NCBI GenBank assembly: GCA_963707045.1
Contig: CAVPOV010000014.1
Span: forward strand, 62,643 to 126,642
Length of the DNA: 64,000 nt
From: an uncultured delta proteobacterium
GTDB lineage: Bacteria; Desulfobacterota; Deferrisomatia; Deferrisomatales; JACRMM01
Direction: 5' to 3'
A program made the position numbers and the translations under genes. The notes under the pieces are model-generated. The model made no database searches, was not told where the DNA came from, and saw only the letters and a list, made by a program, of their open reading frames with translations. Below, in pieces: positions 5,338 to 23,429 of the stretch (its first letter is position 1; every line of letters starts with the position of its first letter).

Positions 5338-5356
5338 TTAAACAGGAGGTACGACC

Positions 5357-5746
5357 ATGAAGCTCTGCTTTCCCGTGGCGAAGAACGAAGGACTCGACAG
5401 CCAGGTGTTCGGCCATTTCGGCTCGGCCCCGATGTTCGTGGTGGTGGACGCGGAGGCCGGGCGGGTGGCGGAGGTCGTCAACCGCGACCTGCACCACGCC
5501 CACGGCGCGTGCAGCCCCGTGAAGGCGCTGGGCGGGCACGCCGTGGACGCCGTGGTGGTGGGCGGCATCGGGGGCGGTGCGCTCTCGGGGCTCTCGCGGG
5601 CGGGGATCCGCGTGCTCGCGGCGGGCGCGTCGACGGTGAAGGAGAACGTCGCCCTCGCCCGGGAGGGGGCCCTGCGGGAGTGGGAGCCCGGCCGCACCTG
5701 CGGCGGCCACGGTCACGGACACGGCTGCGGCCACCACGGCCCGTGA
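5357..5746 (+). CDS. NifB/NifX-family (dinitrogenase FeMo-cofactor biosynthesis-like) domain protein with His-rich tail
   Basis: MKLCFPVAKNEGLDSQVFGHFGSAPMFVVVDAEAG...VVVGGIGGGALSGLSRAGIRV is the typical pattern of the NifX/NifB-type small domain. The tail is GGHGHGHGCGHHGP. Confidence 0.7.
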   Translation: MKLCFPVAKNEGLDSQVFGHFGSAPMFVVVDAEAGRVAEVVNRDLHHAHGACSPVKALGGHAVDAVVVGGIGGGALSGLSRAGIRVLAAGASTVKENVALAREGALREWEPGRTCGGHGHGHGCGHHGP

Positions 5747-6879: not shown

Positions 6880-8010
6880 ATGAAGGAGATTTCCACCGTC
6901 GGCGTGGTCGGCTTCGGGGTCATGGGCGCGGCGATCGGCCTGAACGCGGCGACGGCCGGGTACCGGGTCGTGTTCAAGGAGCTAAACGACGACCTCGTGA
7001 AGCAGATGTACGACCGCTGGGTCGTCGCCGCGCTCGAGAAGCGCGTCGGCCAGGGGAAGATGACCCGGGCCCAGATGGACGACGTCACCTCGAGGATCAC
7101 CGGGACGAGCCGGTACGAGGGGCTGGCCGGGTGCGACCTCGTGATCGAGGCGGCCGTGGAGAAGATGGACCTCAAGATCCGGATCTTCGAGGACCTCTCG
7201 AAGCACTGCCGGCCCGACGCCATCCTCGTGAGCAACACCTCGACGTTCCTGATCGAGAAGCTCATGGAGCGCGCCACCCACCCCGAGCGGACGGCGGGCC
7301 TGCACTACTTCTTCCCGGCCAACGTCAACCGCCTGGTGGAGGTCATCCGCCAGGAGAAGACGAGCGACGCCACCTACCAGGCCCTGATGAAGTTCGCGGA
7401 GAAGAACCGGAAGACCGCGATCACGGTGCGCGACTTCCCCGGCTTCGCGATCAACCCCATCTTCATCGCGAGCTACATGGTCCTCGACTCCTTCCACGAC
7501 GGCGGGAAATGGAACGTCGCCACCCTGGACGACATCTCCTGCAAGGCCCTCGGGGTGCGGTTCGGGATCATGTGGGTCCAGAACGGCTCCGGCCTGGGCA
7601 CCGCCTACCACGCGGCCGAGTCCATGCACGACTACCTGGCCGACACCGACGTGGGCTACCCGCCGGTGCCGGAGGCGCTGAAGGCGCAGTTCGCGAGCGG
7701 CAAGCCGTGGAACCTGGAGGACGGGCCGGTGCTGGAGGACGCGGCGGCCCGGAACGCCGTGCGGGACCGCCTGCTCGGCGCGATCTTCGCCATCGCGACC
7801 CACCTGATCGAGAAGAAGGTCGTCACCCTCGAGGACCTGGAGCTCGGGGTGTGCACCTCCCTCGCCTGGCCCAAGGGCCCCTTCGCCCTGATGAACGAGA
7901 TGGGGATGGAAGAGGCGGCCCGCCTGGTCCGCCTGGCCGTCGCCGCGGGCGACTTCAAGATGCCGAAGGCCTTCGCCGGCGCGACTCCGGAGGCGTGGAA
8001 GCTGGGGTAG
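6880..8010 (+). CDS. 3-hydroxyacyl-CoA (3-hydroxybutyryl-CoA) dehydrogenase family protein
   Basis: 376-aa clean ORF. The N-terminal Rossmann motif is VGVVGFGVMGAAIGLNAATAGYRV. The family-typical segments NTSTF and HYFFPANVNRLVEV are also present. Confidence 0.85.
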   Translation: MKEISTVGVVGFGVMGAAIGLNAATAGYRVVFKELNDDLVKQMYDRWVVAALEKRVGQGKMTRAQMDDVTSRITGTSRYEGLAGCDLVIEAAVEKMDLKIRIFEDLSKHCRPDAILVSNTSTFLIEKLMERATHPERTAGLHYFFPANVNRLVEVIRQEKTSDATYQALMKFAEKNRKTAITVRDFPGFAINPIFIASYMVLDSFHDGGKWNVATLDDISCKALGVRFGIMWVQNGSGLGTAYHAAESMHDYLADTDVGYPPVPEALKAQFASGKPWNLEDGPVLEDAAARNAVRDRLLGAIFAIATHLIEKKVVTLEDLELGVCTSLAWPKGPFALMNEMGMEEAARLVRLAVAAGDFKMPKAFAGATPEAWKLG

Positions 8011-8208
8011 CCGCCCCTGGCCGTCTCCCTCGGCGGCTAGAACCCGGTCGCGCCCATCATGCCGAGCTCGGCGAGGCACAGGGGGCAGAACCGGACGGCC
8101 TCGGAGCTCCCGGCGCGGGCGGGGAGCGGGAGCCCGGCGGCAGGGTCGCTCTCGGGCGCCGTGTCGTCGTCCAGGTCGGCGTCGCAGCGGTCACAACGGT
8201 TCACGATC
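7886..8208. repeat. 323-bp direct repeat, copy 1 (3' end of the dehydrogenase gene plus a small Zn-ribbon ORF)
   Basis: Aligns base-for-base with 10391-10713 with 8 mismatches and no indels (about 97.5% identity). Confidence 0.9.
8037..8204 (-). CDS. small CxxC...CxxC zinc-ribbon protein (copy 1)
   Basis: VNRCDRCDADLDDDTAPESDPAAGLPLPARAGSSEAVRFCPLCLAELGMMGATGF. It is conserved in the second repeat copy. The GTG start is chosen at the repeat boundary, although the ORF track extends to 8282. Confidence 0.35.
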   Translation of the reverse strand: MNRCDRCDADLDDDTAPESDPAAGLPLPARAGSSEAVRFCPLCLAELGMMGATGF

Positions 8209-8300
8209 TCGACTCTCCGGCGGTGCCCGGCATCGCAAGCCACCGACGCCGGCATCGTCAGGCAACGCTCTCCCGCATCCACGTTTCCCCAGGCCGTCCT

Positions 8301-8665
8301 TAACTTCGCGCAGGGAGCACCACGAAATTCCCGGGATTCAGCTTGCGCTCACCGTCCCAGCGGTAGGCGACCAGGTGGCCACCTTTCGCCACACTGCAGT
8401 CCAGGCAACACGCGTTGGGAGTTTGCAGGACCGGGGGGGGGTATTGAACCAGTAGTGCCCGAAGAACACTGGCGGGGCTTCTGCGGGGTACGGCAAGCGC
8501 GCCGTTACAACACTCTCGGGCAGTGGGATGGACACATGCCCCGCATCACCTAGCCCGAACTCCCCGTAGGTCTTCCCCGCTGGATCATCCCACCAACGGA
8601 TCCGCACCGACGTGCGTCCAGATGTATAGAGACGACCCGGGGGCTTCCCCAAGAACACAAGAAGG
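8301..8665 (-). pseudogene. C-terminal remnant of a metallophosphoesterase (Ap4A-hydrolase/PrpE-like), frameshifted
   Basis: ...VRIRWWDDPAGKTYGEFGLGD...PPVFFGHYWF is followed, after a G9/C9 run at 8433-8441, in another frame by VLQTPNACCLDCSVAKGGHLVAYRWDGERKLNPGNFVVLPARS*. The N-terminal two-thirds of such enzymes are missing. Confidence 0.5.
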
Positions 8666-8813
8666 CAAGGACGTCCGTACCAGCCCTCTCTCGATCTTGC
8701 CCCCGGGGAACTCCCACAGGCCACCCAGGCGAGCGCCCTGACGGCGCTTGGCGATCAGGATCTGCCCGCCACGATCAAGGACGCCGGCCGTTACTCGGAC
8801 CATGAGAACCCTC
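8585..8813 (-). pseudogene. truncated NUDIX (MutT-like) gene fragment
   Basis: MVRVTAGVLDRGGQILIAKRRQGARLGGLWEFPGGKIE then breaks off inside the Nudix box. It is a paralogue of the intact gene at 15653-16063, sharing a 29-bp identical stretch (8691-8719 = 15951-15979). Confidence 0.6.
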
Positions 8814-8972
8814 GCTGAAATCGGCCCTCTCGCGGCTGGTGCTTCCGGAAAACCCCCGAACGGCGACCTGTGCTCTCCACGGGGCGCCGACTGCGGCCTG
8901 CTCGGCCTGGCGTTCGGCGGCTTCTTGGATCGTTGGTCCGTCCCCAAGTGTCCCAAGTGTCTCTTCGAGGGC

Positions 8973-10136
8973 TCATGGCGCCTCCGTGCCTTCGGCGAGA
9001 ACGCCGAGGTACCGGTGGTACACGAAGAGGCGGTTTCGTCGCTTGCCGGTCAGCTCCCGGACGAGTCCGAGCCCCTCTAGGAGTTCCATCGCGGCGGATG
9101 CCGCCGGGAAGGACAGCCCGGTTGTCCGGCAGACCTGGGGCATCGCGAGGATCGGTCGCGCCTTGAGCGCCTCGTGGACCCGAAGGGCCGAGCCCGCCCG
9201 GCGTCCACTCGACTCCACGTTCGCCCGATCCACCCTGAACATCTCGGCCAGGCGCTGAGCCGTGGAGACCGCTCCTTCAGCGGTCCGCCGCACCCCCTCC
9301 AGGAAGAACGTGAGCCACGCTTCCCAATCCCCGGTGCGCCGCACCCGCTCGAGCAGTTCGTAGTACGCAGGCCGGTTCTGCTTCAGGTAGAGGCTCAGGT
9401 ACAGGAGAGGCTCCCGCAGTACGCCGGTCTGGCAGAGCAGGAGCGGGATGAGCAGGCGCCCGACCCGCCCGTTTCCGTCGAGGAAGGGGTGGATCGTCTC
9501 GAACTGGACGTGCGCGAGACCGGCCCGCACCAAGACGGGCAGCCCATCGCCTTCCGCATGAAGAAAGCGCTCGAGCGCCGCCATGCAGTCCGGCACCACC
9601 GTGTGCGGCGGGGGGACGAAGACGGCGTTTCCGGGTCGGGTGCCGCCGATCCAGTTCTGGGATCGACGGAACTCCCCGGGATCCTTCGCGCTGCCGCGCC
9701 GCCGCGAGAGCAGCACGCCGTGGACCTCGCGGATCAGTCGATTGGAGAGAGGAAAGCCTTCCCGCAGGCGGTCCAGCCCGTGCTCCAGCGCCGCGACGCA
9801 GTTCGACACCTCGACCACGTCGTCCAGGGGAACACCCGGGGCCTCGTCCAACTCGAAGAGCAGAAGGTCCGACAGCGACGACTGCGTGCCTTCGATCTGG
9901 GACGACAGCACCGCCTCCTTGCGCACATAGGCGTAAAGGAAGAGCGATTTGTCGGGCAGGAGGGTCGAGACGCCGTCGAGGCGGCCGACGGCGAGCACAG
10001 CGGATTCGAACGTCTGCTGGAGTGCGCCATCGAAGGCCAGCGGTGGCTCCGGCGGAAGGGGGGCCGGCACGAAGGCGCGAACCTCCTCGCCTCCGGCGCT
10101 CGTGACCTCGTACCGGCCGGTCTCCCCACGCTCCAT
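8973..10136 (-). CDS. Fic/DOC-family protein (AMPylase-type) with an N-terminal inhibitory motif and a C-terminal wHTH-like region
   Basis: HPFLDGNGRVGRLL matches the Fic motif HxFx(D/E)GNGRxxR. SSQIEG matches the intramolecular inhibitory motif (S/T)xxxE(G/N). The 387-aa ORF is clean. Confidence 0.9.
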   Translation of the reverse strand: MERGETGRYEVTSAGGEEVRAFVPAPLPPEPPLAFDGALQQTFESAVLAVGRLDGVSTLLPDKSLFLYAYVRKEAVLSSQIEGTQSSLSDLLLFELDEAPGVPLDDVVEVSNCVAALEHGLDRLREGFPLSNRLIREVHGVLLSRRRGSAKDPGEFRRSQNWIGGTRPGNAVFVPPPHTVVPDCMAALERFLHAEGDGLPVLVRAGLAHVQFETIHPFLDGNGRVGRLLIPLLLCQTGVLREPLLYLSLYLKQNRPAYYELLERVRRTGDWEAWLTFFLEGVRRTAEGAVSTAQRLAEMFRVDRANVESSGRRAGSALRVHEALKARPILAMPQVCRTTGLSFPAASAAMELLEGLGLVRELTGKRRNRLFVYHRYLGVLAEGTEAP

Positions 10137-10738: not shown

Positions 10739-11626
10739 TCAGCCCAGTTCCGGGTACGCCCGGGGTGCCACATCCCGACAGCGTTGCTCCAGCTGGTGGG
10801 CGATGCGCTGAATCATAACTTCTGGAAGGCTTGCGCCGCCTCGGGGGTCGGCTAGGAACGCGGGGGTCTTGCCGTTGAACACGGCTGGGCCGTCGGGCGC
10901 CGTCCGCTCCACGTACCACCCCGGCAGGGTCAGGGCGGGCCGCACCGCCACCGGTTCTCCCACCGCGCTCGTGAGCCACTTGCCCAGCCATTCGGCCTGG
11001 CGAATCGCCTGTTCGAGCGGCACGGTCTCTGACCACGTTGGAAAGCCCAGTGTCCGGCCATCGTAGACCACGCGGGCCGAGTCCTTCCCCTTCCCCTTTT
11101 TCGTCCGGGCCTTGGTCTCCACGGCCCACACCCCCGCCGGCCCGACCACGACGTGGTCGATGTTGAAGCGCTCGCCGGGAACGTCATGGAAGACCCGGCA
11201 GCCCCGGAGCATTAACTGGTTCAGCTCCTCCCCGACGGCACGCTCCCCGTCTAGACCCAATCTCAAACGATCCCGTTCGTCTAAGCGTGAAATCAGCCGG
11301 TAGGCGCCTATCACCACTCCACCGATACAGAGCACTCCAGCCAAAATGAGGCGCTCCGCGTTCATCCCACCTCTTGGGTAGAAGAGGACGACGGCTCCAG
11401 AGGTCATCAGCAACGGCCACAGGAGGACTAGGAGCGCTTCGTTCAAGATCTGATCGCCGATTTCCTCAAGGCGGTTCCGGAGGGACTCCCCAGGGCTTCG
11501 CAACAGATCTCTTGTCAAAGGATTCCGGCGCCCAGCGCGTCGAGCACGCCAGCGGCGCAGGTAGACAAGCCCAAGGACCACGGGCATTCCGGAGGGGGCG
11601 AGGAGGAGTTCTGCTGGCACCTGCAT
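10739..11626 (-). CDS. membrane-anchored NERD (nuclease-related domain) protein
   Basis: I took the start at ATG 11626 (MQVPAELLL...). N-terminal hydrophobic helices are followed by GERAVGEELNQLMLRGCRVFHDVPGERFNIDHVVVGPAGVWAVETK, the NERD-domain core pattern. Confidence 0.75.
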   Translation of the reverse strand: MQVPAELLLAPSGMPVVLGLVYLRRWRARRAGRRNPLTRDLLRSPGESLRNRLEEIGDQILNEALLVLLWPLLMTSGAVVLFYPRGGMNAERLILAGVLCIGGVVIGAYRLISRLDERDRLRLGLDGERAVGEELNQLMLRGCRVFHDVPGERFNIDHVVVGPAGVWAVETKARTKKGKGKDSARVVYDGRTLGFPTWSETVPLEQAIRQAEWLGKWLTSAVGEPVAVRPALTLPGWYVERTAPDGPAVFNGKTPAFLADPRGGASLPEVMIQRIAHQLEQRCRDVAPRAYPELG

Positions 11627-11709
11627 TGAAGTCGCCTTCGTAGCGGGAGAGGGCCAGAGGAAGAGCCTACAACCCCTGGCACGACGGGGTTCCGGCTTCC
11701 CCTCAAGGA

Positions 11710-12339
11710 TCAGAACCGATCGGCGTCGGCCGTTCGGCCCTTCTCGGCACGGCGACGGCTCAGCGCCTCGGCCTCCCGTGCGCCCTTGTCCTTTAGGGTG
11801 AGGTCCACGTAGTGAAGTTGGAGCGCCGAGCCCGGCCCAATCTGGACGAGCACGCGGTCCGTGGGGCTGGGCGACCACTGCTTCGCCCCGCGGTACAGGA
11901 GGAGCTCCCCCAGACTCCCCGGGATGGGCCAGTCGAAACCTCCGTACTTCCGGGAGAGGATCTGCACGAGGTTGGCCTCCCGCAGTTCCCGATCGTCTTT
12001 CGTGCCCGAGCTGGAGTTCCAGGCCACGTCCACGCTGTGCAGCTCCCGGGTGTACGGTGTCAGCTTCAGCGTAACCCGGGCCGGCCATTCCAGCAGGCGC
12101 GTCGCGTAGCTGTACGACGAATGCTTCCCGACGTCCTTCGTGGCAACCTGGTGGTTGTAGCGCTTGTTGATGTGGACATGCGGACTCGGTGCGATGGGAA
12201 GATCGTGGTCTCGGGCCGTCGCAAGAATCTGAGACAGCCCCATCCCGGAGCGCCAGACGTCGAACTCGAACGCGGCGGAGGTGGAGGGACGGCCAAACGC
12301 GAGCAGGGCGCCGAGGAGGACCAGGGCTGTACGAACCAT
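11710..12339 (-). CDS. secreted hypothetical protein
   Basis: The start MVRTALVLLGALLAFGRPSTSAA looks like a signal peptide. The ORF is 210 codons and no family was recognised. Confidence 0.55.
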   Translation of the reverse strand: MVRTALVLLGALLAFGRPSTSAAFEFDVWRSGMGLSQILATARDHDLPIAPSPHVHINKRYNHQVATKDVGKHSSYSYATRLLEWPARVTLKLTPYTRELHSVDVAWNSSSGTKDDRELREANLVQILSRKYGGFDWPIPGSLGELLLYRGAKQWSPSPTDRVLVQIGPGSALQLHYVDLTLKDKGAREAEALSRRRAEKGRTADADRF

Positions 12340-12470
12340 GCGGTTTATCCCACTCCGAGAGCGTTCGAGTGCCGAAAGCCTCTTATCGGTTTTCCGAGAT
12401 GGCCGCGGAAACCCGGGAACTACTTGTGCCACCCTCGCCTCTGTGCCCGCGGCGGCCTGTCTGTTCCTGA

Positions 12471-15400
12471 CTAACCCGCCACCACCTTCGCCTCCTGGAA
12501 CAACTCGGCCGGCATCGCGGACCGCAGCCGCCACACGATCCGCATAGGCCGCTCGCCCTCGTGGCGAACGTAGGAGACCGGCCCGAGGAACCGATAGGGC
12601 ATCGTCTCCCCTCGGCCGTCCTTCTTCCTCTGCCGCACGAACAGGAGGACGTGGCTGCCCTCCCTCTCGTGGTTCACGTAGCGGCGGCCCGTGGGCGAGT
12701 CGGCCCGGGTCACGCTCTGCGACTCCCAGTGGAACTCCGTGGGAGAGATCGGGTAGTCGTCGTAGCGCGTCGTCGCCGAGTACTCCTTTTCGGACTTCTC
12801 GAGGGTCACGAAGAGGAGGTCCGACCGGGTGGCCTGGTCGTAGTGGACCCCCTGCTGCATCTGTAGAAGCCGTCCATTGGCCGTGACGCCGAACGCGGCC
12901 AGGATCTCGTAGAGGGCGTAGGTGCCGTGCACCTGGAGCGGGACGGGCTGGCCGAGGTCGAGGGGGTAGACGGCCGAGCGGCTCCGGTCGGCCAGCACCG
13001 CCAGAAGCTCCCGAAACTCGGCGCGCATCGCCGGCTCGGCCCAGAGCTCGGCCAGCGCGTCCCCGAGCTCCGCGACCGATCGCGCGCGGTGTCCCAGGGC
13101 GGCGAAGAGCATGAGCTGGAGGCGGCCTTCGAGGGTCTCGGGGGGCCTCGGCTCGGGCGGCTGGTCGCCGGAGACCCACTCCTGCCAGGTGCCCAGGCGC
13201 AGGGGATCGTCCAGGTGGAGCAGCCGGCCGAACGCCTTGGCCAGCCCTCCCTCGTTCGGTCCCGCGGCGGCCTCGGGGAGCCCGGCCGCCCTGCGGAGCG
13301 CGGACCACGAGTTGGTCGCCGCGGACCGCGGGTAGATCTCCTCCAGCTCCACGCCGGCCTGAGACAGGAAGGCGGCGAGGTCCACGTCCCCGAGGCTCCG
13401 CAGGTCCTCCACCAGGGCCGCCCGGCCGAGCGCGGAGCGCGTCCTTCACGTTGGCCAGCACGGCCTCGCCGGGACAGACGGTCGAGTTGCAGGGAGCAGC
13501 CCGGGCGGGAGGAACGGGAACTCGGCCTCCACCTGCTTCGCGAAGTCCCGCCGCGTGCCGCCGAGGATTGCCCGGTACTTGAGGTCGAAGCGGAACTGGC
13601 GGTGCGCGTTGCCGATGAAGTCGAGGACCGAGAAGCGACCCCTTGCCCTGCGGCCAGCCGGAGCCCGCGCCCCAGCTGCTGGAGGAAGACCGTGGCGCTC
13701 TCCGTCGGGCGCAGGAAGAGGACCGTGTCGACCTCGGGCAGGTCCACGCCCTCGTTGAAGAGATCGACGGCGAAGACCACGCTGGACCCGCCGCTCGCGC
13801 AGGTCGCCGGAGGGCCGTTCCGGCGCTCGTCGCCCGGCGTGCCGCCGTGAATCGCCACGGCGGCCACGCCGGCCTCGGCGAAGCGGCGCGCCATGAAGAC
13901 CGCGTGGTCCACACCCGCGCAGAAACCCGAGCGCCCGCATCCTGGCCGGGTCGGCGACCCGGGCCTTCACCTCCTGGAGGATCCGCGCGGCGCGGCTGTG
14001 GTGGCCGGTGTAGAGCCTCTCGAGCTCCGCCAGATCGTACCGGCCCCGCGTCCAGCGATGCCCGAGAGGTCGGTCCCGTCGTGGACGCCGAAGTAGTGGA
14101 ACGGGCACAGGAGCCCCTGGTCCAGCGCCTTCCAGAGCCGCAGGTCCGCCGCCACGCGGCCTTCGAACCACTGGAGCACGTCCTGGCCGTCGGTGCGTTC
14201 CGGGGTGGCGGTCAGCCCCAGGAGCACCCTGCGGCGGAGAGCGTCCGCAGGAGCGCGTCGTAGCTCGGCGCCGCGGCGTGGTGGAACTCGTCGACGATCA
14301 CCACCTCGTAGGCGTCGGGTCGGAGCCCTGCGAGGCGCTCGGCGCGCAGCGACTGGATCGACGCGAAGACGTGGCGGCCCGCCTCGGGCCGATGCGCCGT
14401 CCACCAGGAGCTCGCCGAAGCTGCCGTCACCCAGGACCACCTGGAAGACCGCCCGGCTCTGCTCGAGGATCTCCTTCCGGTGGGCCACGAAGAGGAGGCT
14501 CGCCTCGCCCCGCTCGCGCCGCAGGCGCGCGTAGTCGAAGGCCGCGACCCAGGTCTTGCCGGTGCCGGTCGCGGCCACGACCAGGTTCTTCCAGTGCCCG
14601 CCGCTGCCGCTCGGCGTCGAGCCGCTCGAGGATCTCCTGCTGGTGCGCCTTGGGCGCCACCTCGAGTCGGCAGCTCGATGGCCGCGGTGCGCCCCTCCCC
14701 CGTCTGCCGCCGGAGCGCCCGTTCGAGCCGGTCGCCGTCCGCCTCGGGGTCGTAGGGCTGAAACTCCGCCTCGGCCCAGTACTGGTCGAACACGGCGCGG
14801 AACCGCGCCACGATGCCCGAGTTGTCGGTCTCGCTCGCGCGGACGTTCCACTCGAGCCCGTCCACGCAGGGCCGCACGGGAGAGGTTCGACGAGCCGATG
14901 TAGGCGGTGGAGAAGCCCCTCGGTCGCGGTGGAAGAGCCAGGCCTTGGCGTGAAGTCGGGTCTGATCGGTCTCGTAGGACACCTTGATCCGCGCCCCGAG
15001 GCGGCACAGCTCGTCGAGGGCCCGGCGCTGGGTGGCGCCGGTGTAGACCGTGGTGAGGACCCGAAGCTCTCGGCCCGAGCGCAGGAACTCCGCCAAAGCG
15101 TCCCGGATCACCAGGAACCCGGTCCAGCGGACGAAAGCGCAGAGGAGGTCGACCCGCTGGGCGCTCGCCAGCTCGCTCGCCACCGCGCGGCCGATCCCCT
15201 GGTCCCGGTGGCCGTTCACGAGGAGGACGCTCGACCGAAGCGGGATCACCGGACGCGCCGGTGGCTGGTTCGCACCCAGGTCCCCGGACGGCCTCACCAA
15301 GTGGAGCAGCAGGCGGCCGGGCTCGTCGACCGCGTCGCCCTCGACCACCGGGTAGGCCGTGGAGTCCTTCAGGAAGTCGAGCAGTCGGTTGGCGAGTCCG

Positions 15401-15660
15401 ATCTGCGCCGCTACCTGTTCCGTGCCCTCGCCTGGGAGGGAGCGAAGCGCGCCGAAGAGATGCCGCCCCACGTAGCGGGCCAGGACCTCGGGCGCCCCCT
15501 CGCCGTCGAGATCGCGACGGCCCGCGCCCCAGCCGCGGGCTTCGAGGCGGACCAGCGCCTCCCCGAGCTCTCGGGTCACGAGGTCCTCGTAGAGCCCCGG
15601 CAGAAGCTCGCGGCCACCGTGCCCCTCTCCGGCGCCCCCCCGCCGTCTGCCGTCACCCAC
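12471..15660 (-). pseudogene. PLD-family (NgoFVII-like) nuclease, SF2 DEAD/DEAH helicase and DUF3427 fusion, with multiple frame changes in the helicase core
   Basis: The N-terminal 245 aa are clean and carry the HKD motif RLHAKAWLFH plus YIGSSNLSRAAL. Helicase motifs VVAATGTGKTWVAA, VIVDEFHH and LGLTATPER lie scattered over three frames (about 13.4-14.9 kb). The C-terminal 313 aa are clean and end ...HWESQSVTRADSPTGRRYVNH...LLFVR...YRFLGPV (DUF3427 pattern). Confidence 0.8.
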
Positions 15661-16063
15661 CCTGCGCCGCCTTCTGCTGAGAAGAAGTCTCTTGCAGAAA
15701 CGCCACCGTGGGCAGGTCCGCGGGCGCGAACTCGTACGCCCCCATCTCCTCCGGCCGCACCCACCGCACCTCGTCGTGGTCCCGCAGCTCGAATTCCCCG
15801 GCGACGTGAACGGCCCGGTAGCTCAGGAGCTCGATCGAAAGGTGGGGGTAGTGGTGGACGTGCGACACCAGAAACTCGCCGATCTCAGCCCCGATGCCGA
15901 ACTCCTCGTGAAGCTCCCGAGCCAGGCAGTCCCGTGGGTCCTCCCCGTCCTCGATCTTGCCCCCGGGGAACTCCCACAGACCCGCGAGGCGGTGGTGTTC
16001 CCTCCGCTTGGCGATCAAGATTCTCCCGGCCCTCTCCATGACGGCGGCAGTGACTCGGATCAA
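15653..16063 (-). CDS. NUDIX hydrolase (MutT/8-oxo-dGTP diphosphatase family)
   Basis: GLWEFPGGKIEDGEDPRDCLARELHEEFGI is a complete Nudix box GX5EX7REUXEEXGU. The 3' end overlaps the start of the downstream PLD-helicase gene by 8 nt. Confidence 0.85.
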   Translation of the reverse strand: MIRVTAAVMERAGRILIAKRREHHRLAGLWEFPGGKIEDGEDPRDCLARELHEEFGIGAEIGEFLVSHVHHYPHLSIELLSYRAVHVAGEFELRDHDEVRWVRPEEMGAYEFAPADLPTVAFLQETSSQQKAAQGG

Positions 16064-16138
16064 TGGTTCTCCTCCAAGACCGATGGGCCAACGCTGAGTC
16101 CAGAGACGTTCGCGCAGAAGTGCGTTGCGCCTTCCCTC

Positions 16139-17119
16139 TCACCGCCTGCGAAACACCCTGTCGCGGTGCCACCGCACCGCCTCCGGATCCGGCCGCCAAG
16201 CGCCCTCCGCTGGCCCGATCAGGAGCCGCCCGACCAAAGCACCCAGGTGGGCCGGCACGTTGTCGCGTCCGCCCAGTTGGGGCGAGGCGAGGATCACGTA
16301 CACCGCCGTCAGGCTGAGGAGCCCCTCGTCGAAGGTCCAGTGGCAGAGGCGGCAGAGAGCCAGACCGTTTCGGGGGTCGTCGTTCTTCGACTCGCTCCAG
16401 GGGACGATGTGGGCCGCCTCGACGACGGTGTGGCCGTCGGGCGTGGTCATTCGGATGCCGCAGAAGCCGCACCGGTGCTCATAAGCCGTGACCACGGCCC
16501 GCCGGAAGCCCTGGTCCCGGGCCGGTGGCGGCACGGTCTCGGCCGCGAGGCTCGCGCCGCCGAAGGGCTCGGATCGGGCGGCCTCGAGGAGGTCGTGACT
16601 GTAGCGGTAGGCCTGGACGTTGACGGCGGCTTGGGCGAGCAGGGCGGGCCGAACCGCCGGGGCGAAGTAGTGTTCCACCAGCGCGGCGCGCAGCTTTTCG
16701 CGGCTCGCCGGGTCCAGGAGCAGCGCGAAGAGCTCTTCATCGAGCCGGGCGCCGAGGACAATCCCTTGGAGCTGCGGGACCGAACTCACGGTCTTCGTGG
16801 CTTGGAGGACCGCCTCCTTGCCCGGCACGGCGACGAGATGCCAGAAACCGCCGCTGCGAAGGTGGAAGAAGGGGTAGGCCAGGTTCCCCATCCGATCGGC
16901 GGGCATGACCTTGGACCAGTAGAGGGAGAAGAGTTCGCCAAGGTCGCGGGTGAGCTCCACGAGGTTCGCCGCCAGCGTCCCCTCGGCAATCAGGTCCATC
17001 ACCGACAGGAGCAGGAGCGGCTTGTGAGGTGCCCGCTCCAGGGTCGCGGCGGGAAACTTGCCTCTGCCCCCGTCCGTGCGCAGCCGCGTGAAGCGGCGGA
17101 CGTACTCCGGGAGGCTCAC
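16139..17119 (-). CDS. HNH endonuclease (HNH_2 type), putative type IV restriction enzyme with an N-terminal DNA-sensing domain
   Basis: The GTG at 17119 overlaps the HIT stop (GTGA). The C-terminus CGFCGIRM..EAAHIVPWSES..NGLALCRLCHWTFDEG is an HNH motif. The N-terminal PHKPLLLLSVMDLI and AYPFFHLRSGGFWHL resemble motifs I recall from ScoMcrA-type sulfur-binding (phosphorothioate-sensing) domains. That resemblance is unverified. Confidence 0.7.
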   Translation of the reverse strand: MSLPEYVRRFTRLRTDGGRGKFPAATLERAPHKPLLLLSVMDLIAEGTLAANLVELTRDLGELFSLYWSKVMPADRMGNLAYPFFHLRSGGFWHLVAVPGKEAVLQATKTVSSVPQLQGIVLGARLDEELFALLLDPASREKLRAALVEHYFAPAVRPALLAQAAVNVQAYRYSHDLLEAARSEPFGGASLAAETVPPPARDQGFRRAVVTAYEHRCGFCGIRMTTPDGHTVVEAAHIVPWSESKNDDPRNGLALCRLCHWTFDEGLLSLTAVYVILASPQLGGRDNVPAHLGALVGRLLIGPAEGAWRPDPEAVRWHRDRVFRRR

Positions 17120-17610
17120 CTCGCTCGCCCCTTCGGCTTCGGTTCGGTGACGAGCGACGCGCTGCCCAGGCCGGGGATGAACCCGGGATCCCGGTAATTG
17201 CCCCGCGCCGGGATGACGAACCGCACCCCGCCCGTGGGGTCGTCCACGTCGCCGTCGAACCGGGGGATCAGGTGCAGGTGCAAGTGGGACACGGTCTGGC
17301 CCGCGGCCGGGCCGGCGTTGAACCCGCCGTTGTAGCCGTCGGGCTTCAGTTCCGCGTCGAGTCGAGCCTTGACCCGGTCGGCGAGCTCCAGGATGGCGAG
17401 CTGTTCTTCCCGGCTGGCGTCGAACCAGGTGGGCACGTGGCGGCGGGGAACGATGAGGGTGTGGCCGGGGTTGACCGGGAAGCCGTCGGGAAAGGCCGCG
17501 GCCAGGGCGTTCTCGGCGAGGATCTCCCGGCCGCGAAGGTCGCAGAACGGGCACTTGCCGGCGGGGCTCACCGCCCGCGGGCTCCGGACCCCGGGCGGCG
17601 AAACGGCCAC
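17116..17610 (-). CDS. HIT-family (histidine triad) nucleotide hydrolase/transferase
   Basis: TVSHLHLHLIPR is the HxHxHxx histidine triad, and CPFC lies near the N-terminus. The exact start is uncertain (GTG 17610 or GTG 17571). Confidence 0.85.
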   Translation of the reverse strand: MAVSPPGVRSPRAVSPAGKCPFCDLRGREILAENALAAAFPDGFPVNPGHTLIVPRRHVPTWFDASREEQLAILELADRVKARLDAELKPDGYNGGFNAGPAAGQTVSHLHLHLIPRFDGDVDDPTGGVRFVIPARGNYRDPGFIPGLGSASLVTEPKPKGRAR

Positions 17611-17781
17611 CCCGCCGTTTCGGCGAAGTGGCCGCGTCCGTTGCCAGCCGTGCTTTCGAGCTTCCGCATCCCTGCCCCTCCCCGAGTCGATCGACCTCCC
17701 GTATCTACGCCGAACGGCGGGGAAGGGTCAACGGAGAATCCGGTCCGCCGTGGTCCCTGCCGATCCGCAGACAGAAGCCGA

Positions 17782-17861
17782 GGGGACGCAACTGAAATCA
17801 ACACATTCCTCCTCCCGGGCAACCGAGGGGAGGGACGACGCGAGGGGGAAGTTGCGTCCCC
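17782..17861. repeat. 12-bp inverted repeat (hairpin element B), related to element A
   Basis: GGGGACGCAACT (17782-17793), a 56-nt loop, then AGTTGCGTCCCC (17850-17861). The first 20 nt GGGGACGCAACTGAAATCAA versus GGGGACGTAACCGAAATCAT in element A differ at 3 positions. Confidence 0.65.
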
Positions 17862-17866
17862 GTTGA

Positions 17867-18380
17867 CTACTCACTTCTCTCCTGCACGCTCCCCAGAACC
17901 ACCGCCCACCCCGTGGCGATCCACCGCGTCGACCCCTTCGGCGTCCCGTCGAGATAGCGCAGTCGGTTCACCAGCCCCTCGTCGAGCACCGCGCCGGTAC
18001 CGGCGGAGCGTTCGCTCGCGGCCAGCACCCAGGCGATGTCGGTGAGGCTCACGGTGCGCTCGGCTAAGCCGCCCTCGCCCCCGTCGATCCGGACCCTCCC
18101 CCTTGAGCTGGTCCGACGATGCGGCAGCGTCGGTCGCCGCTTCCGACCCAGCCGCCTGGGCCCGGGTCTGCCAGCACCTGCGCCACCAGTTCCCGCGCCT
18201 TCTCGTCCCAACGTCCCACGCCCAGGTACCGCCACGGTTCCCCGGGTCCGCTTCGCCCGAGCACGAAGGAGGTCTCTCCCGGGTGCCCCTGGGTCGCGGC
18301 CAGAGTCACGCAGTCGGGGTGGAGAGAGATCCCTCGCCTTCGAGCAGGAAAAGAGGTGACCGTCCACCCGGGACCACGGC
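17867..18380 (-). pseudogene. degraded ORF of unknown function
   Basis: Two minus frames each carry protein-like sequence: ...GETSFVLGRSGPGEPWRYLGVGRWDEKARELVAQVLA and ...RVRIDGGEGGLAERTVSLTDIAWVLAASERSAGTGAVLDEGLVNRLRYLDGTPKGSTRWIATGW. No family was recognised, and part of it is repeated at 19256-19329. Confidence 0.3.
17991..18064. repeat. 74-bp direct repeat, copy 1
   Basis: Matches 19256-19329 with 5 mismatches. It encodes ..AERTVSLTDIAWVLAASER..GTGA on the minus strand in both copies. Confidence 0.8.
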
Positions 18381-18430
18381 CCCCGCGGCAGGCCGGAGAG
18401 GCCGAAGCTGCCCTGACGGGGATGACGCCG

Positions 18431-18823
18431 TCACACGGCGTCGTCCAGCAGCCGCGCCACGCGGCCCAAGAGTTGGCGCAGTTGGCCGACGGCCACTTCG
18501 CGGTCCAGCGGCGGTTCCTCCTCTTCGAGTGCCTGGTAACGGAACTGAACCCCGAAGGGGTTGTACTCCACCAGGTCCCATAGCGCTTCGACTTCGACGC
18601 CGTGTCCCTGGAGCACCGTGATGAGGGTGGCGAGATTGTGGGTCAGGGGGTATTCCTGGCCGAGCGCCGCGATCCAGGCCTTCAAGGCCTTCCCAGCGGC
18701 CTGCTGCGCGTGGAATCCGAACACCTCATCCGCGAACACCTCCGCGTCGCTCATTCCGCCCAGTGCCCGCAGGTCCTTCTCGGCCATCGCGAGCAGGGCC
18801 GCTGCATTCTCTCGCTCGCTCAT
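18431..18823 (-). CDS. HEPN domain protein (pair 1)
   Basis: MSERENAAALLAMAEKDLRAL...FGFHAQQAAGKALKAWI...NPFGVQFRYQ is the typical small HEPN protein partnered with a minimal nucleotidyltransferase. Confidence 0.8.
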   Translation of the reverse strand: MSERENAAALLAMAEKDLRALGGMSDAEVFADEVFGFHAQQAAGKALKAWIAALGQEYPLTHNLATLITVLQGHGVEVEALWDLVEYNPFGVQFRYQALEEEEPPLDREVAVGQLRQLLGRVARLLDDAV

Positions 18824-19148
18824 AGAGGACCCTGCCTTCCCGAAGCGCATGCGCCACCACGTGATTTCGGGTGTTTGCCCAGTGCTCGGCTTCTTCGGCG
18901 GTGTAGACGAGGATGTCCTGGGAAACCGGGAACCGCGCGAGGGCGCGCGACAGCCTAGCCATCTCCCGCCGCCGGCTGCGGCCCGGGCCGAAGGGCTTGT
19001 CCTCGATGACGAGGAAATCCACGTCCGACGCCGGCCCAGCCGCGCCTCTGGCGTGAGACCCGAAGAGGACGATCTTCCGAGGTTTCGCCTCACGGACGAG
19101 GATCTCGGTCATTTCCTCGACGAGCCTCTCGACGGCCTGAGCGGTCAT
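18726..19148 (-). CDS. minimal nucleotidyltransferase (MNT/NTase-fold, pair 1)
   Basis: KIVLFGSHARGAAGPASDVDFLV matches the NTase motif GS-x9-12-DxD. The ORF tail overlaps the HEPN gene by 98 nt in another frame. Confidence 0.8.
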   Translation of the reverse strand: MTAQAVERLVEEMTEILVREAKPRKIVLFGSHARGAAGPASDVDFLVIEDKPFGPGRSRRREMARLSRALARFPVSQDILVYTAEEAEHWANTRNHVVAHALREGRVLYERARECSGPARDGREGPAGTGRNERRGGVRG

Positions 19149-19445: not shown

Positions 19446-22400
19446 TCACGGTGAGGCGAGCTTGCGGCCGCAGTTGGGGCAGGTCTCGGCGCCCGGGCGG
19501 AGGTGCCCGAGGCAGTGGGAGCAGTGGGAGGATACGGTCCGGCGCACGCCGGCCACCCCGATGACCGGGCCGGGGCGCTTCTTCGGTTGGCTCCCGGCGG
19601 CGGGTCGGGTCTCGGCGTGCCCGGCGCTGTGGCCCCGGCCCGCGCCGGCGAAGGCGGCGAAGGCGGGCGCCCCTGCCCGGGCGTAGAAGTCGAAGCCGGC
19701 GCCTTCCTCCGTCCAGTCCTCCTCCATCAGGTATTCGCCGCTGTCCTCTGCCTCGGTTTCGGAGCGCCGGACTCGTGCCACCCACGCGGGGGCGCCTTCG
19801 TCCAACCGGGCCTGCACGCGGGAACGGAGGCCGACGAGCTCCTCCTGGAGCCCGGGGGTCTTCGCCCGCAGCTCGTTCAGGGCCCGCTCCAGCGTCTCCG
19901 GGGGCGGGACGCCGTCGACCAAGGCGTCGGGACCCAGGGCGGCGCAGACGGAGATCCGTCGGTCGGCCTTGGCGAGCCGGGCCTTCTGCTCCGCCCAGCG
20001 CCCCTCCTCTCCGGACAGCGCCGCGCGTTCCTCCTCCCACGCGGACCGGCGCTCCTGCAGCCGGGCTTCGCTCTCCCGGAGGCCGGCCTCCTCGGCCGCG
20101 AGCTTGGACCGTTCCTCGCCGAGGCGGAGCTTCTCTTCCGCGATCCGTCCCGCCTCCCGCTCCATGTCCGAGGACTCCTGGGCGAGGCGCCGGGCCCACG
20201 CATCCAGGTCGGCGTTCTCCCGGGCGAGGGCGCCGTCTTCGGCGGCGAGCCGCTCCACCTCGGCGGCCAGGGCACGGTGCGCCCGCTCCCACGCCTCCAC
20301 CTCCCCGGCCAGGTGCGCCTCCTGCCCGGCGAGGTCGCCGGCCGCCGCGGCCAGGTCGTCTCGGATCGCCGCCCAATCCGTCTGGGCTCGGGCCAGCTCC
20401 GCGGCCTCCCGGTGGTGCTCCTGCTCCGCCTCCCGCAGCGAGCCCGCCCGCAGCTCGAGCCGCGCGTCGTCCTCCTCGATCCGGGCCTGCTCGGCCGCGA
20501 TCCGCTGGCGGTGGTCGGCCAGGGTCGCGGCGGCTCTGGCGAGCTGCTCCCGCCCGTCCGCCACGCGGGCCCTGCCCTTCTCGATCCGGTCCCGCTCTTC
20601 GGCCAGCCGGGCTTCGAACCGCTCCAGCCGGGCGGCCTCCGCCCGCCGTTCCTCCCGGACGACTCCCAGGCGGGCCTCGTCTTCCGCGAGGCGGGCCAGC
20701 TCCCCGTCCAGGCCTTCCAGCTCCGCGGCCAGCGCGGCCCGCTTCGCGCCGAGGCCGGCCCTCGACTCCTCGAGGAGGGCCTGGCTTCGCTGCCACGCCG
20801 CCCGCTGCGCCGCGAGGTCGGCGTCCGCGGCGGCCAACCCCTCTTCCCACGTCGCCAGCCGGAGCCTCTCGGCGGCGATGGCTTCCTCCTCCGCCGCGCG
20901 CTCGGAGCGGACGGTGGCCGCGAACGCTTCGTCCTCCCGCAGCGCCTGCTCCCGGGCCGCCAGCGCGTCCGCGTCCGCCCGCAGCCCGGTCTCCGCCGCG
21001 GTCAGCGCGGCCCGCTCGGCCCGGAGGTCCGCCTGCTCCGCCGCCAACGCGTCCCGCGCCCCCCCGGCGGCTTCCCGTTCCGATCCCCGCTTCCGCTCCT
21101 CCTTGAGAGATGCCGCTGTTTCGTCGAGACCTCTCTTCTCCGTCGCGAAGGAGCGCCGCTCCTGCTGCAGGCTTTTCCTCTGGCCCTGCAGGTCGCGCTC
21201 CTTTCCCAGGAGCGCCTCCCGCGCCGCGGCCGACTCGGCCGCTCTCCGGGCAAGCGTCTCCCGCTCTTCCCCGAGCCGGGCCTGCTCCCCTTCCCGCACC
21301 GCCGGGTCCTGCGCCTCGCTCCCCCCGGCGAGGGCCCTCTCCTCCTTGGAGAGCTTCTTCCGCGCCCTCCCGAGCGCCCCCTTCGCTCCGGAGAGCTTCT
21401 TCTTCTCCTGGGCGAGCACTTCCGCCTCGCCTTCGCACGCCTGGAGCGCCCGGGTGTTCGCCCGCCTTCGCCGCGCGAGGTCCTTGCGGGCCGCCGCCAG
21501 TTCCCTCTCGGCCCGATCCAGCTCCTCGGGCGTCCGGACCGGAGCGGCGGCCAGGGCTTCGAGCTCGCCCCGGCGGCGGGCGAGGGCGGCCGACTGCTCC
21601 TCCCAGCGACGCATCCTCTCCGCCAGGGCGTCCTCCGCCTGCCGCAGCGCCTCCCGCTCCCCGGCCAGGAGCTCTCGGCTCTCGGCCAGCGCCGTCTCCC
21701 GCGCTTCCACCCGGGCCGCCCAGGTCCTCGCCCCGGCTTCCCGGGCGGCGAGGCCGGCTTTATCCCTCTCGAGCCGCCCGCGGTCGGCGGCGAGCTCTTC
21801 TCCGCGGCGCTGGTTGTCGCGGCCCCGCTCGTCCAGGTCTGCTTCCTCCGCGGCGGCCCGGCTGGCTTCCGCTTCGAGCCCTGCCCGCGCCTCGACGCGG
21901 CAGGCCCGCCGCCCCTCGACCTCCTCCCGGGCGGATGCCAGGGCCCCACTCTCGTCCGCCAGGGCGCGCTCGGCTTCGCGGTGAGCGGCCAGGTCCCGCT
22001 CGAACTCGGCCCGGTCCGCGGACAGTGCCCCTTCCCGCTCCCGAAGGGCGGCCTCCCACTCCTTCACCTTCTGCACGCCCGCGTCGTACTTCTCGGTGTG
22101 ACCGGCCGTGGCGTGCCGGCGCTCGGCGAGTCGGTCCCGTTCCCCCGCCAGCCGGGCCCTCGCCTCCTCCAGCGCGGCCGCCTGCGCCGCCAGGTCCCGG
22201 CTCCGTCGCCCGTGGGCCTCGCGGCGGCCCGCGAGCGCCGCCCCGCTCTCGGAATGCTCCTTCTCCCGCCGACCGACGACCCGTCTCCCGTCCCCCAGCT
22301 CTTCCTGCCGGCGTCCCAGGACCCCGCGGGCGGCGGTCAGCTTCTCCTGTCGCACCGCCGCCGTCTGCCGGCCCTCGACCTGCGCGGCCGCCCCGCGCGC

Positions 22401-23360
22401 GTGGGCTGCCCGCCGCTGGGCCAGGGTCTCTCCCGCCTCGACCCACTGCTGCCTGCGGAGGACGATCTGTCTCCCGTCGTGGACGAGCGCCGCCTCGCGG
22501 GCGCCGCACCTCCGCCCCCGCTCGTCGAGCACCGCCCTCACGTTGCCGAGCCGCTCCTCCTGCCGGACGAGCTCGGCCTCCTGCTGCTCCAGCCGCTGCC
22601 GATGTCCCGCCAGCCGGGCCCCTTCCTCTGCGAGGACCTGCTCGCCCGTGACGACCTCGGTCAGGAGCTCGATCCGTCTCCGGTGGAGGTCGAACCGGTG
22701 ACGGGCTTCGGGGAACGCGCGGCCGACCGAGAGCTTCCATCGGTTGCTCGCCCGCTCGGCGGCGGATTTCTCGACGGCGTCGAAGTTCTCGTCGTCGGCC
22801 CACCGGACGGCGAAGCCGTTGACGCTCCACCCGAGGGGAGTGGTCTCCGCGGTGAAGACCTTCTCCAGCGCCCGCTCGAGATAGGCCGCTCCCTCGCCGA
22901 AGTCGGCGTCCGCCCACTGCTGGAAGGGCGCTTCCAGACGCTTCGACAACCGGTGCGCCAGGTCGTCCGCCGCCAGCGCGGTGTGGCCTGCCAGCATCTC
23001 CACGAGGCCGCCGAGGTGGAAGGGCTTGCACGAGAGGGTGGCCGAGAGCTCGCAGTACCTGCGAGCGCCCGCGCCGTCCTCGCTTTCCAGGTCCAGGTGG
23101 AGGCGAAAGGGATCGGCGACGACGAGGAGCACGTCCGGCGGGGTGGCCCCGGCCAGCAGGCGCCGAACCCACGTGAGCCCGGCGCCGGTGCGCTCGGTGC
23201 CCCGCGTCAGCACGTCGAGGCACTTGCCCTCGTGGTAGACGCAGAGCTGGTCGCCGACCCCCACCGTGAACCCGTCCTCGAGCAGCGCGACGAGCTCCAC
23301 GGGGGCGAGGCTCTTAGCGATGGTCTGGTTTCCGTAGATCTTCCAGTTCACGATCGACAC
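19446..23360 (-). CDS. 1304-aa protein with an N-terminal globular domain (possibly SPFH/Band7-like), about 950 aa of A/E/R/L-rich coiled coil, and a C-terminal zinc ribbon
   Basis: A single uninterrupted ORF. The start is chosen at GTG 23360, 5 nt after AGGTGG. The N-terminus reads VSIVNWKIYGNQTIAKSLAPVELVALLEDGFTVGVGDQLCVYHEG... The long heptad-like region reads ...LAAEQADLRAERAALTAAETGLRADADALAAREQAL... The C-terminus is CSHCLGHLRPGAETCPNCGRKL. Confidence 0.85.
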   Translation of the reverse strand: MSIVNWKIYGNQTIAKSLAPVELVALLEDGFTVGVGDQLCVYHEGKCLDVLTRGTERTGAGLTWVRRLLAGATPPDVLLVVADPFRLHLDLESEDGAGARRYCELSATLSCKPFHLGGLVEMLAGHTALAADDLAHRLSKRLEAPFQQWADADFGEGAAYLERALEKVFTAETTPLGWSVNGFAVRWADDENFDAVEKSAAERASNRWKLSVGRAFPEARHRFDLHRRRIELLTEVVTGEQVLAEEGARLAGHRQRLEQQEAELVRQEERLGNVRAVLDERGRRCGAREAALVHDGRQIVLRRQQWVEAGETLAQRRAAHARGAAAQVEGRQTAAVRQEKLTAARGVLGRRQEELGDGRRVVGRREKEHSESGAALAGRREAHGRRSRDLAAQAAALEEARARLAGERDRLAERRHATAGHTEKYDAGVQKVKEWEAALREREGALSADRAEFERDLAAHREAERALADESGALASAREEVEGRRACRVEARAGLEAEASRAAAEEADLDERGRDNQRRGEELAADRGRLERDKAGLAAREAGARTWAARVEARETALAESRELLAGEREALRQAEDALAERMRRWEEQSAALARRRGELEALAAAPVRTPEELDRAERELAAARKDLARRRRANTRALQACEGEAEVLAQEKKKLSGAKGALGRARKKLSKEERALAGGSEAQDPAVREGEQARLGEERETLARRAAESAAAREALLGKERDLQGQRKSLQQERRSFATEKRGLDETAASLKEERKRGSEREAAGGARDALAAEQADLRAERAALTAAETGLRADADALAAREQALREDEAFAATVRSERAAEEEAIAAERLRLATWEEGLAAADADLAAQRAAWQRSQALLEESRAGLGAKRAALAAELEGLDGELARLAEDEARLGVVREERRAEAARLERFEARLAEERDRIEKGRARVADGREQLARAAATLADHRQRIAAEQARIEEDDARLELRAGSLREAEQEHHREAAELARAQTDWAAIRDDLAAAAGDLAGQEAHLAGEVEAWERAHRALAAEVERLAAEDGALARENADLDAWARRLAQESSDMEREAGRIAEEKLRLGEERSKLAAEEAGLRESEARLQERRSAWEEERAALSGEEGRWAEQKARLAKADRRISVCAALGPDALVDGVPPPETLERALNELRAKTPGLQEELVGLRSRVQARLDEGAPAWVARVRRSETEAEDSGEYLMEEDWTEEGAGFDFYARAGAPAFAAFAGAGRGHSAGHAETRPAAGSQPKKRPGPVIGVAGVRRTVSSHCSHCLGHLRPGAETCPNCGRKLASP

Positions 23361-23429
23361 GATGCCACCTGCGCGTCCGGTTCCAACTCCTCGCGCGGTC
23401 ACGCCCACGGATACGCCGGACGGACCGCC

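Follow-up and report, generated by a model that had tools for sequence, protein, structure and literature searches.

Layout of the locus

Here we analyse four consecutive coding regions on the minus strand (17610-12471) of a 64,000-nucleotide (nt) stretch of DNA, which we call the window, taken from an uncultured delta proteobacterium of the Deferrisomatales (GenBank assembly GCA_963707045.1, contig CAVPOV010000014.1, forward-strand positions 62,643 to 126,642) and with a G+C content of about 70%. In the direction of reading, they encode a HIT-family hydrolase of 151 amino acids (aa) (17116-17571; Pfam HIT, E 2.8e-22), an endonuclease of 326 aa that joins a sulfur-binding domain (SBD) to an HNH nuclease (16139-17119, GTG start), a NUDIX_4 (MutT/NudG-like) pyrophosphohydrolase of 136 aa (15653-16063; NUDIX_4, E 3.6e-23), and a disrupted gene similar to that of the Type IV restriction enzyme SauUSI (12471-15660), which combines a PLD nuclease, an SF2 helicase and DUF3427. 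Each predicted nuclease is thus directly preceded by a small hydrolase. An initial annotation of this DNA had described the same four genes together with their junctions; the genes are present, and the junctions can be read in the sequence as it gave them; its domain calls also stand, with Pfam recovering HIT, HNH_2, NUDIX_4, ResIII, Helicase_C and DUF3427, the last three on pieces of the fourth gene.

The members of each pair are tightly joined. The stop codon of the HIT gene (TGA, 17118-17116) and the start codon of the SBD-HNH gene (GTG, 17119-17117) have the tetranucleotide GTGA in common, and the open reading frame (ORF) of the NUDIX gene, which runs from 16063 to 15653, overlaps the in-frame GTG at 15660 by 8 nt, its stop lying at 15655-15653. 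Between the pairs, from the SBD-HNH stop at 16139 to the NUDIX start at 16063, there are 75 nt (16064-16138). This spacer carries a GGAGGAG sequence 7 nt ahead of the NUDIX TTG start, and no terminator-like site was seen in it when 12000-18500 was scanned for promoters and terminators, a scan that is uninformative in DNA of 70% G+C. An independent gene call in a protein collection places the SBD-HNH start at the identical position (326 aa) and begins the HIT protein at 17571 (151 aa), not at 17610, where a longer ORF has its GTG; a 482-aa ORF from the fourth gene and a 128-aa call for the NUDIX gene of the window are likewise present in that collection. The helicase frame of the orthologous locus L081 likewise starts at a GTG overlapping the stop of the NUDIX gene, with conservation of the first 27 residues. 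Short start/stop overlaps are frequent in operons and have no significance by themselves, and the case that these pairings go beyond chance comes instead from their conservation and from gene fusions elsewhere. The junctions behind the probable co-translation of each pair proposed in the initial annotation are real, but co-translation of the second pair cannot be read here, where the PLD-helicase frame is broken.

Two predicted modification-dependent nucleases

The N-terminal domain of the SBD-HNH protein is of the ScoMcrA sulfur-binding type, with the motifs APHKPLLLL and AYPFFHL and with PF26340 (DNA-SBD_ScoMcrA) precomputed for an identical protein. Similarly, the PDB entry 8h0l (SBDHga1 from Hahella) matches its residues 1-151 with an E of 8.5e-16, and its C-terminal nuclease is found by Pfam as HNH_2 (E 1.4e-12) and HNH (E 1e-4). 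Liu et al. defined the residues of the SBD cavity as H116, R/K117, Y164 and P165, and SBD domains read the Rp form of the phosphorothioate (PMC6224610); the equivalents in the window protein are the H-K of APHKP and the Y-P of AYPFFHL. The NCBIfam model NF045808 (phosphorothioated DNA-binding restriction endonuclease) matches with an E of 9.8e-41 and scores 139.7 bits against a cutoff of 180, and from its sequence the protein is best regarded as a relative of this narrowly defined model, not as a certified member of it. Judged by these matches, it should be a phosphorothioate-DNA-dependent Type IV restriction enzyme. In two orthologous loci this gene is in decay upstream of the NUDIX gene: at L083 just short HNH remnants are found there (7684-7850), and at L084 the 3' end of the HNH gene runs into a NUDIX gene that lacks its first ~20 codons (1-949), the two having been merged by the gene caller as one product of 211 aa.

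The fourth gene is identified through a frameshift-aware alignment, which yields a protein of about 1055 aa; it retains every catalytic motif and shares roughly 50% identity with intact relatives. Its conceptual translation contains the PLD (HxK) motifs LHAKAW and GSSNLS and aligns to the PLD region of SauUSI in PDB entry 7clg, PLDc_2 is recorded for orthologues of the gene, and the SF2 motifs ATGTGKT, DEFH, TATPER and QQLGRGLR are all found in the reconstructed protein. DUF3427 (PF11907) was recovered on 12471-13412 with an E of 3.4e-24, and a second matched stretch reaches the C-terminus of 7clg. The reconstructed protein matches the PADLOC model mREase_IV (Type IV methyl-directed restriction) end to end with an E of 2e-253, and the nearest solved structure is that of SauUSI itself (7clg, E 9.8e-76). 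By analogy with SauUSI, we expect that the enzyme should read modified cytosine. Because of these identities of the SBD-HNH and SauUSI-like proteins, both effectors would be modification-dependent Type IV enzymes, and the guess of the initial annotation that both are Type IV or restriction-like is borne out by the SBD, mREase_IV and SauUSI matches.

A broken reading frame in the SauUSI-like gene

The SauUSI-like gene had been read by eye as one intact PLD-helicase-DUF3427 gene, which it is not in the window. The interval 12471-15660 is 3190 nt long and no multiple of 3, the ORF from 15660 stops after 482 codons, and ResIII, Helicase_C and DUF3427 were found by Pfam on separate overlapping ORFs. 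Moreover, the codon position of highest G+C (the GC3 phase) changes six or more times within 13600-14800, and intact homologues align to the gene in alternating frames. The orthologues L081 (from a Deferrisomatales metagenome-assembled genome (MAG), 90% identical in DNA), L083 and L084 have uninterrupted genes of 1030-1058 codons, in each of which PLD, helicase and DUF3427 share the single frame that is missing from the window. Pairwise and four-way DNA alignments with these three intact orthologues revealed 16 indels private to the window, one of them a 1-nt deletion and the other 15 insertions of 1-2 nt. They all lie inside 13431-14924, a stretch that takes in the last part of the PLD domain together with the helicase core; the NUDIX gene, the 736 nt preceding this stretch and the 960 nt following it are free of them.

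An origin of these frameshifts in homopolymer runs is rejected, most of the 16 indels being outside such runs. No relaxed selection was seen in the frameshifted stretch: against L081 its substitution density is the lowest of the gene (7.8 per 100 nt), and its bias towards codon position 3, where 70% of the substitutions fall, is the strongest. Several other long ORFs of the window are intact and have a uniform coding signal throughout. We somewhat favour a local assembly or consensus artefact over old decay, because the indels are private, small, mostly insertions, off homopolymers and located in the stretch with the strongest signature of purifying selection, while other long genes are intact. 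In this metagenome-derived assembly, reads of related populations that cross-mapped onto the conserved helicase core would fit as a source of such an artefact. The case serves as a caution, in that a gene read by eye as intact carries 16 frameshifts that are probably an assembly error.

Association of the HIT gene with nucleases

The HIT protein has an intact histidine triad (HLHLHLI; H96, H98 and H100 are invariant in our alignment A1) and a tail specific to its clade, GDVDDPxGGVRFVIPxRGNY. Many HIT structures, Ap4A-related ones included, are among its PDB matches, and it falls in no functionally defined subfamily such as the HinT phosphoramidases or the Ap4A phosphorylases/adenylyltransferases, with NCBIfam scores of 56, 51 and 35 bits against cutoffs of 290, 130 and 206. 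A match to the Thoeris-associated HIT family of PADLOC is weak (E 2e-10). The clade occurs in no fewer than 593 species representatives, spread over many phyla, and we surveyed the gene neighbourhoods of the best 80 of these (51-69% identity), four of which lacked the contig room to be judged, leaving 76 informative loci.

In at least 61 of the 76 loci the HIT gene is linked to a DNA nuclease. At 40 of them the HIT frame continues into a PLD-helicase to give proteins of ~950-1600 aa, which Pfam resolves as HIT-PLDc_2-ResIII-Helicase_C, some with DUF3427, and at a further five the PLD-helicase adjoins the HIT gene. An HNH nuclease lies directly downstream, often with a 4-nt overlap, at 12 loci (at L003 the two are fused), a small PLD nuclease accompanies HIT at one locus, and at three or more an HNH_4 gene lies upstream and overlaps the HIT start by 4 nt; at most 15 loci are without a linked nuclease. 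The closest relative of the window HIT protein, at L174 (80% identical), is followed with a 4-nt overlap by an SBD-HNH protein of 326 aa (74% identical) in an unrelated neighbourhood. Since the pair is kept at L174 in different surroundings, HIT and SBD-HNH travel as a unit, and at L028 and L040, from other phyla, HIT is also paired with an SBD-type HNH protein. The possibility that the HIT gene is a generic Hint homologue that stands here independently of nucleases is ruled out by the linkage in at least 61 of 76 loci.

For the fused HIT-PLD-helicases, the matches in PADLOC are to mREase_IV and to a generic HIT model, and the HIT portion has no specific model of its own. We found no paper on HIT proteins with Type IV, HNH or PLD-helicase enzymes, which is weak evidence given that the literature searched was incomplete. 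It appears that neither HIT as a recurrent partner nor the large group of PLD-helicase enzymes fused to it has been described before.

Several further arrangements were seen around this HIT clade. The HNH_4 partner, of ~355-390 aa, has a conserved N-terminal domain (ATYKYAVLLAL.DL, ELYWPQ) without a Pfam match and usually overlaps the HIT gene by 4 nt; it stands downstream of HIT at L004, L013, L025, L032, L068 and L075 and upstream at L039, L044 and L048, and at L003 (5995-7488) it forms with HIT one protein of 497 aa. Comparison of its N-terminal domain with the SBD by hhalign gave a probability of 5%, which is not significant. In two Bacteroidales MAGs (L054, 5491-6594; L076, 5485-6582) the HIT gene of this clade is fused behind an N-terminal region that resembles, by its sequence, a methyltransferase dependent on S-adenosylmethionine (ILDFGCGFG). 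The 4.8-kb contig L175 (JGI 3300041084) holds three HIT copies, 66-75% identical (3-152, 2319-2768 and 4378-4791), among AbiEi/AbiEii, UPF0175/DUF3368 (likely a toxin-antitoxin pair) and Fic genes, with no adjoining nuclease.

Association of the NUDIX gene with SauUSI-like genes

The Nudix box of the NUDIX protein is intact (GX5EX7REUXEEXGU; GGKIEDGEDPRDCLARELHEEFGI), and its residues G35, E41, R49, E50 and E53 are invariant in our alignment A2. Its residues 1-126 match positions 6-131 of the 135 positions of the PADLOC profile PDC-S07 (E 1e-45), and its best PDB matches are 3ees, 2rrk (CTP pyrophosphohydrolase) and 5zrc (MutT2). The best NCBIfam match is to a pyrimidine (d)NTP diphosphatase model, with an E of 7.5e-35 but a score below its cutoff, and the protein stays below the equivalog cutoffs of NF007834 (NudG-type; 119.7 against 156 bits) and TIGR00586 (MutT; 81.9 against 97.9 bits). 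On these comparisons it is closest to the (d)NTP pyrophosphohydrolases of the MutT/NudG/MutT2 type.

Among relatives with at least 80% identity, three of four (those of L081, L083 and L084) directly precede an intact SauUSI-like gene, and at L084 SBD-HNH, NUDIX and SauUSI-like genes stand in the same order as in the window; the fourth, at L082 (85% identical), is found in an unrelated context. This agrees with published work, as Xu et al. in 2011 noted a conserved MutT/NUDIX gene beside sauUSI and "at least 60" linked pairs (PMC3141236), and a 2025 preprint reported for S. suis that PDC-S07 was co-localised with Type IV restriction-modification (RM) genes in all of 23 cases. We conclude, as the initial annotation had supposed, that each hydrolase is a dedicated nuclease partner and not a chance housekeeping neighbour, on the strength of the HIT linkage in at least 61 of 76 loci and of the three NUDIX genes among the four close relatives. 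Its remark that these pairings are not named systems holds for HIT, whose pairing we found in no paper, but not for NUDIX, which matches PDC-S07 and whose linkage to SauUSI was published in 2011. The NUDIX/SauUSI linkage was therefore already known from the 2011 and 2025 reports, and the HIT pairing is the new part.

A scan of viral contigs for SauUSI-like genes gave three true matches, too few for statistics. On one viral contig from IMG/VR (L167) a NUDIX gene (31% identical, 5843-6184) lies directly downstream, not upstream, of the SauUSI-like gene. The window itself holds a fragment of a second NUDIX gene similar to PDC-S07 on the minus strand (8684-8803), which represents 40 N-terminal aa, is 72.5% identical to the NUDIX protein of 15653-16063 and ends after the GGKIE motif. 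The initial annotation had seen at this place a third NUDIX fragment next to a remnant resembling an Ap4A hydrolase. The NUDIX fragment is real, whereas the remnant is without Pfam support: in 8000-8680 the letters PVFFGHYW occur in another frame, and no Pfam family matched.

Flanking genes

On the minus strand, downstream of the four genes, lie a Fic/DOC gene (8973-10136) and a gene for a NERD-domain protein (10739-12088), and upstream of them lie genes for a HEPN protein (18431-19093) and for a product of 1320 aa that is coiled-coil or of low complexity (19446-23408). Together with the four genes, they form a defence and toxin-antitoxin islet. At L174 the context of the HIT/SBD-HNH pair is again that of a defence island, with NERD-UvrD and YhcG-like genes upstream and, downstream (7760-9700), a MotA/ExbB-like gene with a long helical region that is possibly ZorA-like. 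At L081 a second C-terminal segment of DUF3427 type (5007-5218), 62% identical in aa to the helicase end, was seen just upstream of an Mrr_cat gene (5256-6140), which may point to a further reader of the DUF3427 type that is paired with a different nuclease.

Possible roles of the hydrolases

Taken together, these data lead us to read the locus as two tandem Type IV cassettes, HIT with SBD-HNH and NUDIX with the SauUSI-like enzyme, in which the hydrolases act as housecleaning partners. As a whole, we give this reading about an even chance of being right. The parts differ in strength: we have high confidence in the predicted gene identities and recurrent pairings, and the housecleaning mechanism taken alone is a tentative proposal to which we give distinctly less than an even chance.

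The mechanism would work as follows. In cassette 1, the SBD-HNH enzyme would read phosphorothioate (PT) DNA via its ScoMcrA-type domain and cut it with the HNH domain. For cassette 2 the model is SauUSI, which cuts DNA containing 5-methylcytosine (5mC) or 5-hydroxymethylcytosine (5hmC) in an ATP-dependent manner (PMC3141236, PMC3874153). From the degraded modified DNA, modified mononucleotides would enter salvage, and once built into the host chromosome they would expose it to self-cutting by the cognate nuclease. Polymerases accept both 5-methyl-dCTP and Sp-dNTP-alpha-S, and use of the second gives Rp-PT links. E. coli NudG/Orf135 prefers 5-methyl-dCTP, and a NUDIX protein similar to NudG and MutT2 would hydrolyse 5-methyl-dCTP or 5-hydroxymethyl-dCTP (5hm-dCTP), while the HIT protein would desulfurate dNMP-5'-phosphorothioates. 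Additional support comes through HINT1, which turns (d)NMPS into (d)NMP and H2S (PMC8775712). The hydrolases would be accessory and not needed for cutting, since the nucleases are also found, and are active, in their absence. That the hydrolases protect the host pool had been offered as one idea in the initial annotation; we infer such a role as well, and it would fit the affinities of the enzymes better than a signal or threshold.

Several observations weigh against this interpretation. Among distant relatives of the NUDIX protein from metagenomes (36-57% identity), a SauUSI-like gene follows in only 3 of 49 informative loci (one of these relatives has an SBD-HNH gene preceding it), so that the neighbourhood conservation the initial annotation had looked to holds for close relatives (three of four) but not for distant ones. 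Of six independently sampled SauUSI-like genes, five are without an adjoining NUDIX gene and the sixth has one downstream, and SauUSI is active alone as a single polypeptide (PMC3874153). The link between NUDIX and SauUSI-like genes is thus optional, not obligatory. The NUDIX protein falls below the NudG and MutT cutoffs, the HIT protein finds no match among the functionally defined subfamilies, and the HINT1 desulfurase is slow, with a kcat of ~0.02 per second (PMC8775712). Fusions to PLD-helicases make up about half of the close HIT relatives, several of them with DUF3427 or with unassigned C-terminal readers, and no SBD was detected in those of the fused enzymes that we examined, for which reason a PT-specific role cannot be general for the HIT clade; a fused domain is also not an obvious design for an enzyme that cleans a nucleotide pool. 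Finally, should the 16 indels of the SauUSI-like gene prove real, this organism has no working cassette 2. A broader form of the proposal, to which we would give about one chance in four, is that HIT and NUDIX are interchangeable housecleaning partners for precursors, each of which clears the mark that its nuclease senses, the HIT-fused PLD-helicases behaving likewise.

Other roles for the hydrolases can be envisaged. NTPs and NDP-X compounds are common substrates of Nudix enzymes, and the hydrolases could serve in counter-counter-defence by destroying the modified precursors or modification donors of a phage (hydroxymethyl-dCTP (hm-dCTP), the NDP-sugars that glucosylate hydroxymethylcytosine (hmC), or hypermodification intermediates), as a result of which invader DNA would stay cuttable by the linked Type IV enzyme, or phage replication would starve. 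The listing of NUDIX in PADLOC as a stand-alone defence candidate (PDC-S07) is in keeping with such a role, and so are the occurrence of the hydrolases as optional add-ons to self-sufficient nucleases, as for a module that widens the target range, and the fused HIT domain, which would suit activity at the site of attack. We nevertheless consider it unlikely, in that the NUDIX protein is nearest to the MutT/NudG NTP pyrophosphohydrolases and not to NDP-sugar hydrolases, and clearing the precursors of 5mC/5hmC would erase the very mark that a SauUSI-type enzyme needs. Cleavage of NpnN by HIT/Fhit and some Nudix enzymes lies behind an idea that goes back to the initial annotation, in which a nucleotide signal (Ap4A, NpnN, cyclic or NAD-derived) gates the nuclease as a threshold or off-switch and is set or removed by the hydrolases. 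The Ap4A-related structures among the PDB matches of HIT, its weak match (E 2e-10) to the Thoeris-associated component, and the tight coupling and fusion, which would suit a regulatory domain, all lean this way. The idea found little else to stand on, as we saw no cyclase, TIR, SIR2 or similar protein in the cassettes or the conserved neighbourhoods examined and no recognisable nucleotide-sensor domain in either nuclease, and modified DNA is itself the direct activator of SauUSI and SBD-HNH enzymes; with neither a signal-making enzyme nor a sensor domain found, we regard it as quite improbable. We place least credence, and very little of it, in the hydrolases having no joint function with the nucleases, being ordinary housecleaning genes in mobile defence islets with cassette 2 a decaying relic here. 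The 3 of 49 distant NUDIX relatives that are nuclease-linked and the unrelated context of the L082 gene (85%) would agree with this, as would the three HIT copies of L175 without a nearby nuclease, the broken SauUSI-like frame, the HNH remnants and partial deletions at L083 and L084, and the truncated NUDIX fragment at 8684-8803. Yet hitch-hiking cannot explain in-frame HIT-PLD-helicase fusions in 40 of 80 representatives from many phyla, together with an HNH fusion, nor does it sit well with a HIT/SBD-HNH pair that moves as a unit or with a NUDIX/SauUSI-type linkage that recurs from Staphylococcus and Streptococcus to the Deferrisomatales lineage.

The usual assumption is that Type IV restriction enzymes can do without self-protection, as the host lacks the modification; these systems have no methyltransferase to mark self. 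If the proposed housecleaning role is true, it would amount to a principle of immunity in Type IV systems, would explain a linkage of SauUSI and NUDIX that is 15 years old and give a role to PDC-S07, and would do the same for a HIT clade of at least 593 species representatives whose members are fused to PLD-helicase and HNH nucleases or coupled with them. The value of the finding lies in a concrete and testable explanation for a linkage that has long gone unexplained.

Comparison with known systems

Similar to SauUSI of S. aureus (PDB ID 7CLG), the fourth gene of the window combines a PLD nuclease, an SF2 ATPase/helicase and DUF3427 with a full-length match to mREase_IV, and similar to the sauUSI locus with SAUSA300_2432 it has a small MutT/NUDIX gene immediately beside it. 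Unlike SauUSI, the window copy is distant (E 1e-75, mainly over residues 146-686), has ~140 extra N-terminal residues and carries the 16 indels. The SBD-HNH protein resembles ScoMcrA and SBDHga (PDB ID 8H0L) in its N-terminal SBD, in the conserved H-K/Y-P cavity residues and in its C-terminal HNH domain, and differs from ScoMcrA in being shorter, with two domains in 326 aa and no SRA domain in the Pfam scan, and in being preceded by an overlapping HIT gene, which is absent from the account of ScoMcrA in PMC6224610. With PDC-S07, which tracks Type IV RM systems in S. suis, the window NUDIX protein agrees over the whole model; PDC-S07 is scored as a single-gene candidate, however, whereas in the window and at L081, L083 and L084 the NUDIX gene is the upstream member of a two-gene cassette. 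Lastly, the folds and catalytic motifs of the two hydrolases match those of E. coli NudG/Orf135, mycobacterial MutT2, human DCTPP1 and HINT1, but these are housekeeping enzymes without a nuclease link, unlike the window proteins, which fall below the equivalog cutoffs and stand directly ahead of their predicted Type IV nucleases.

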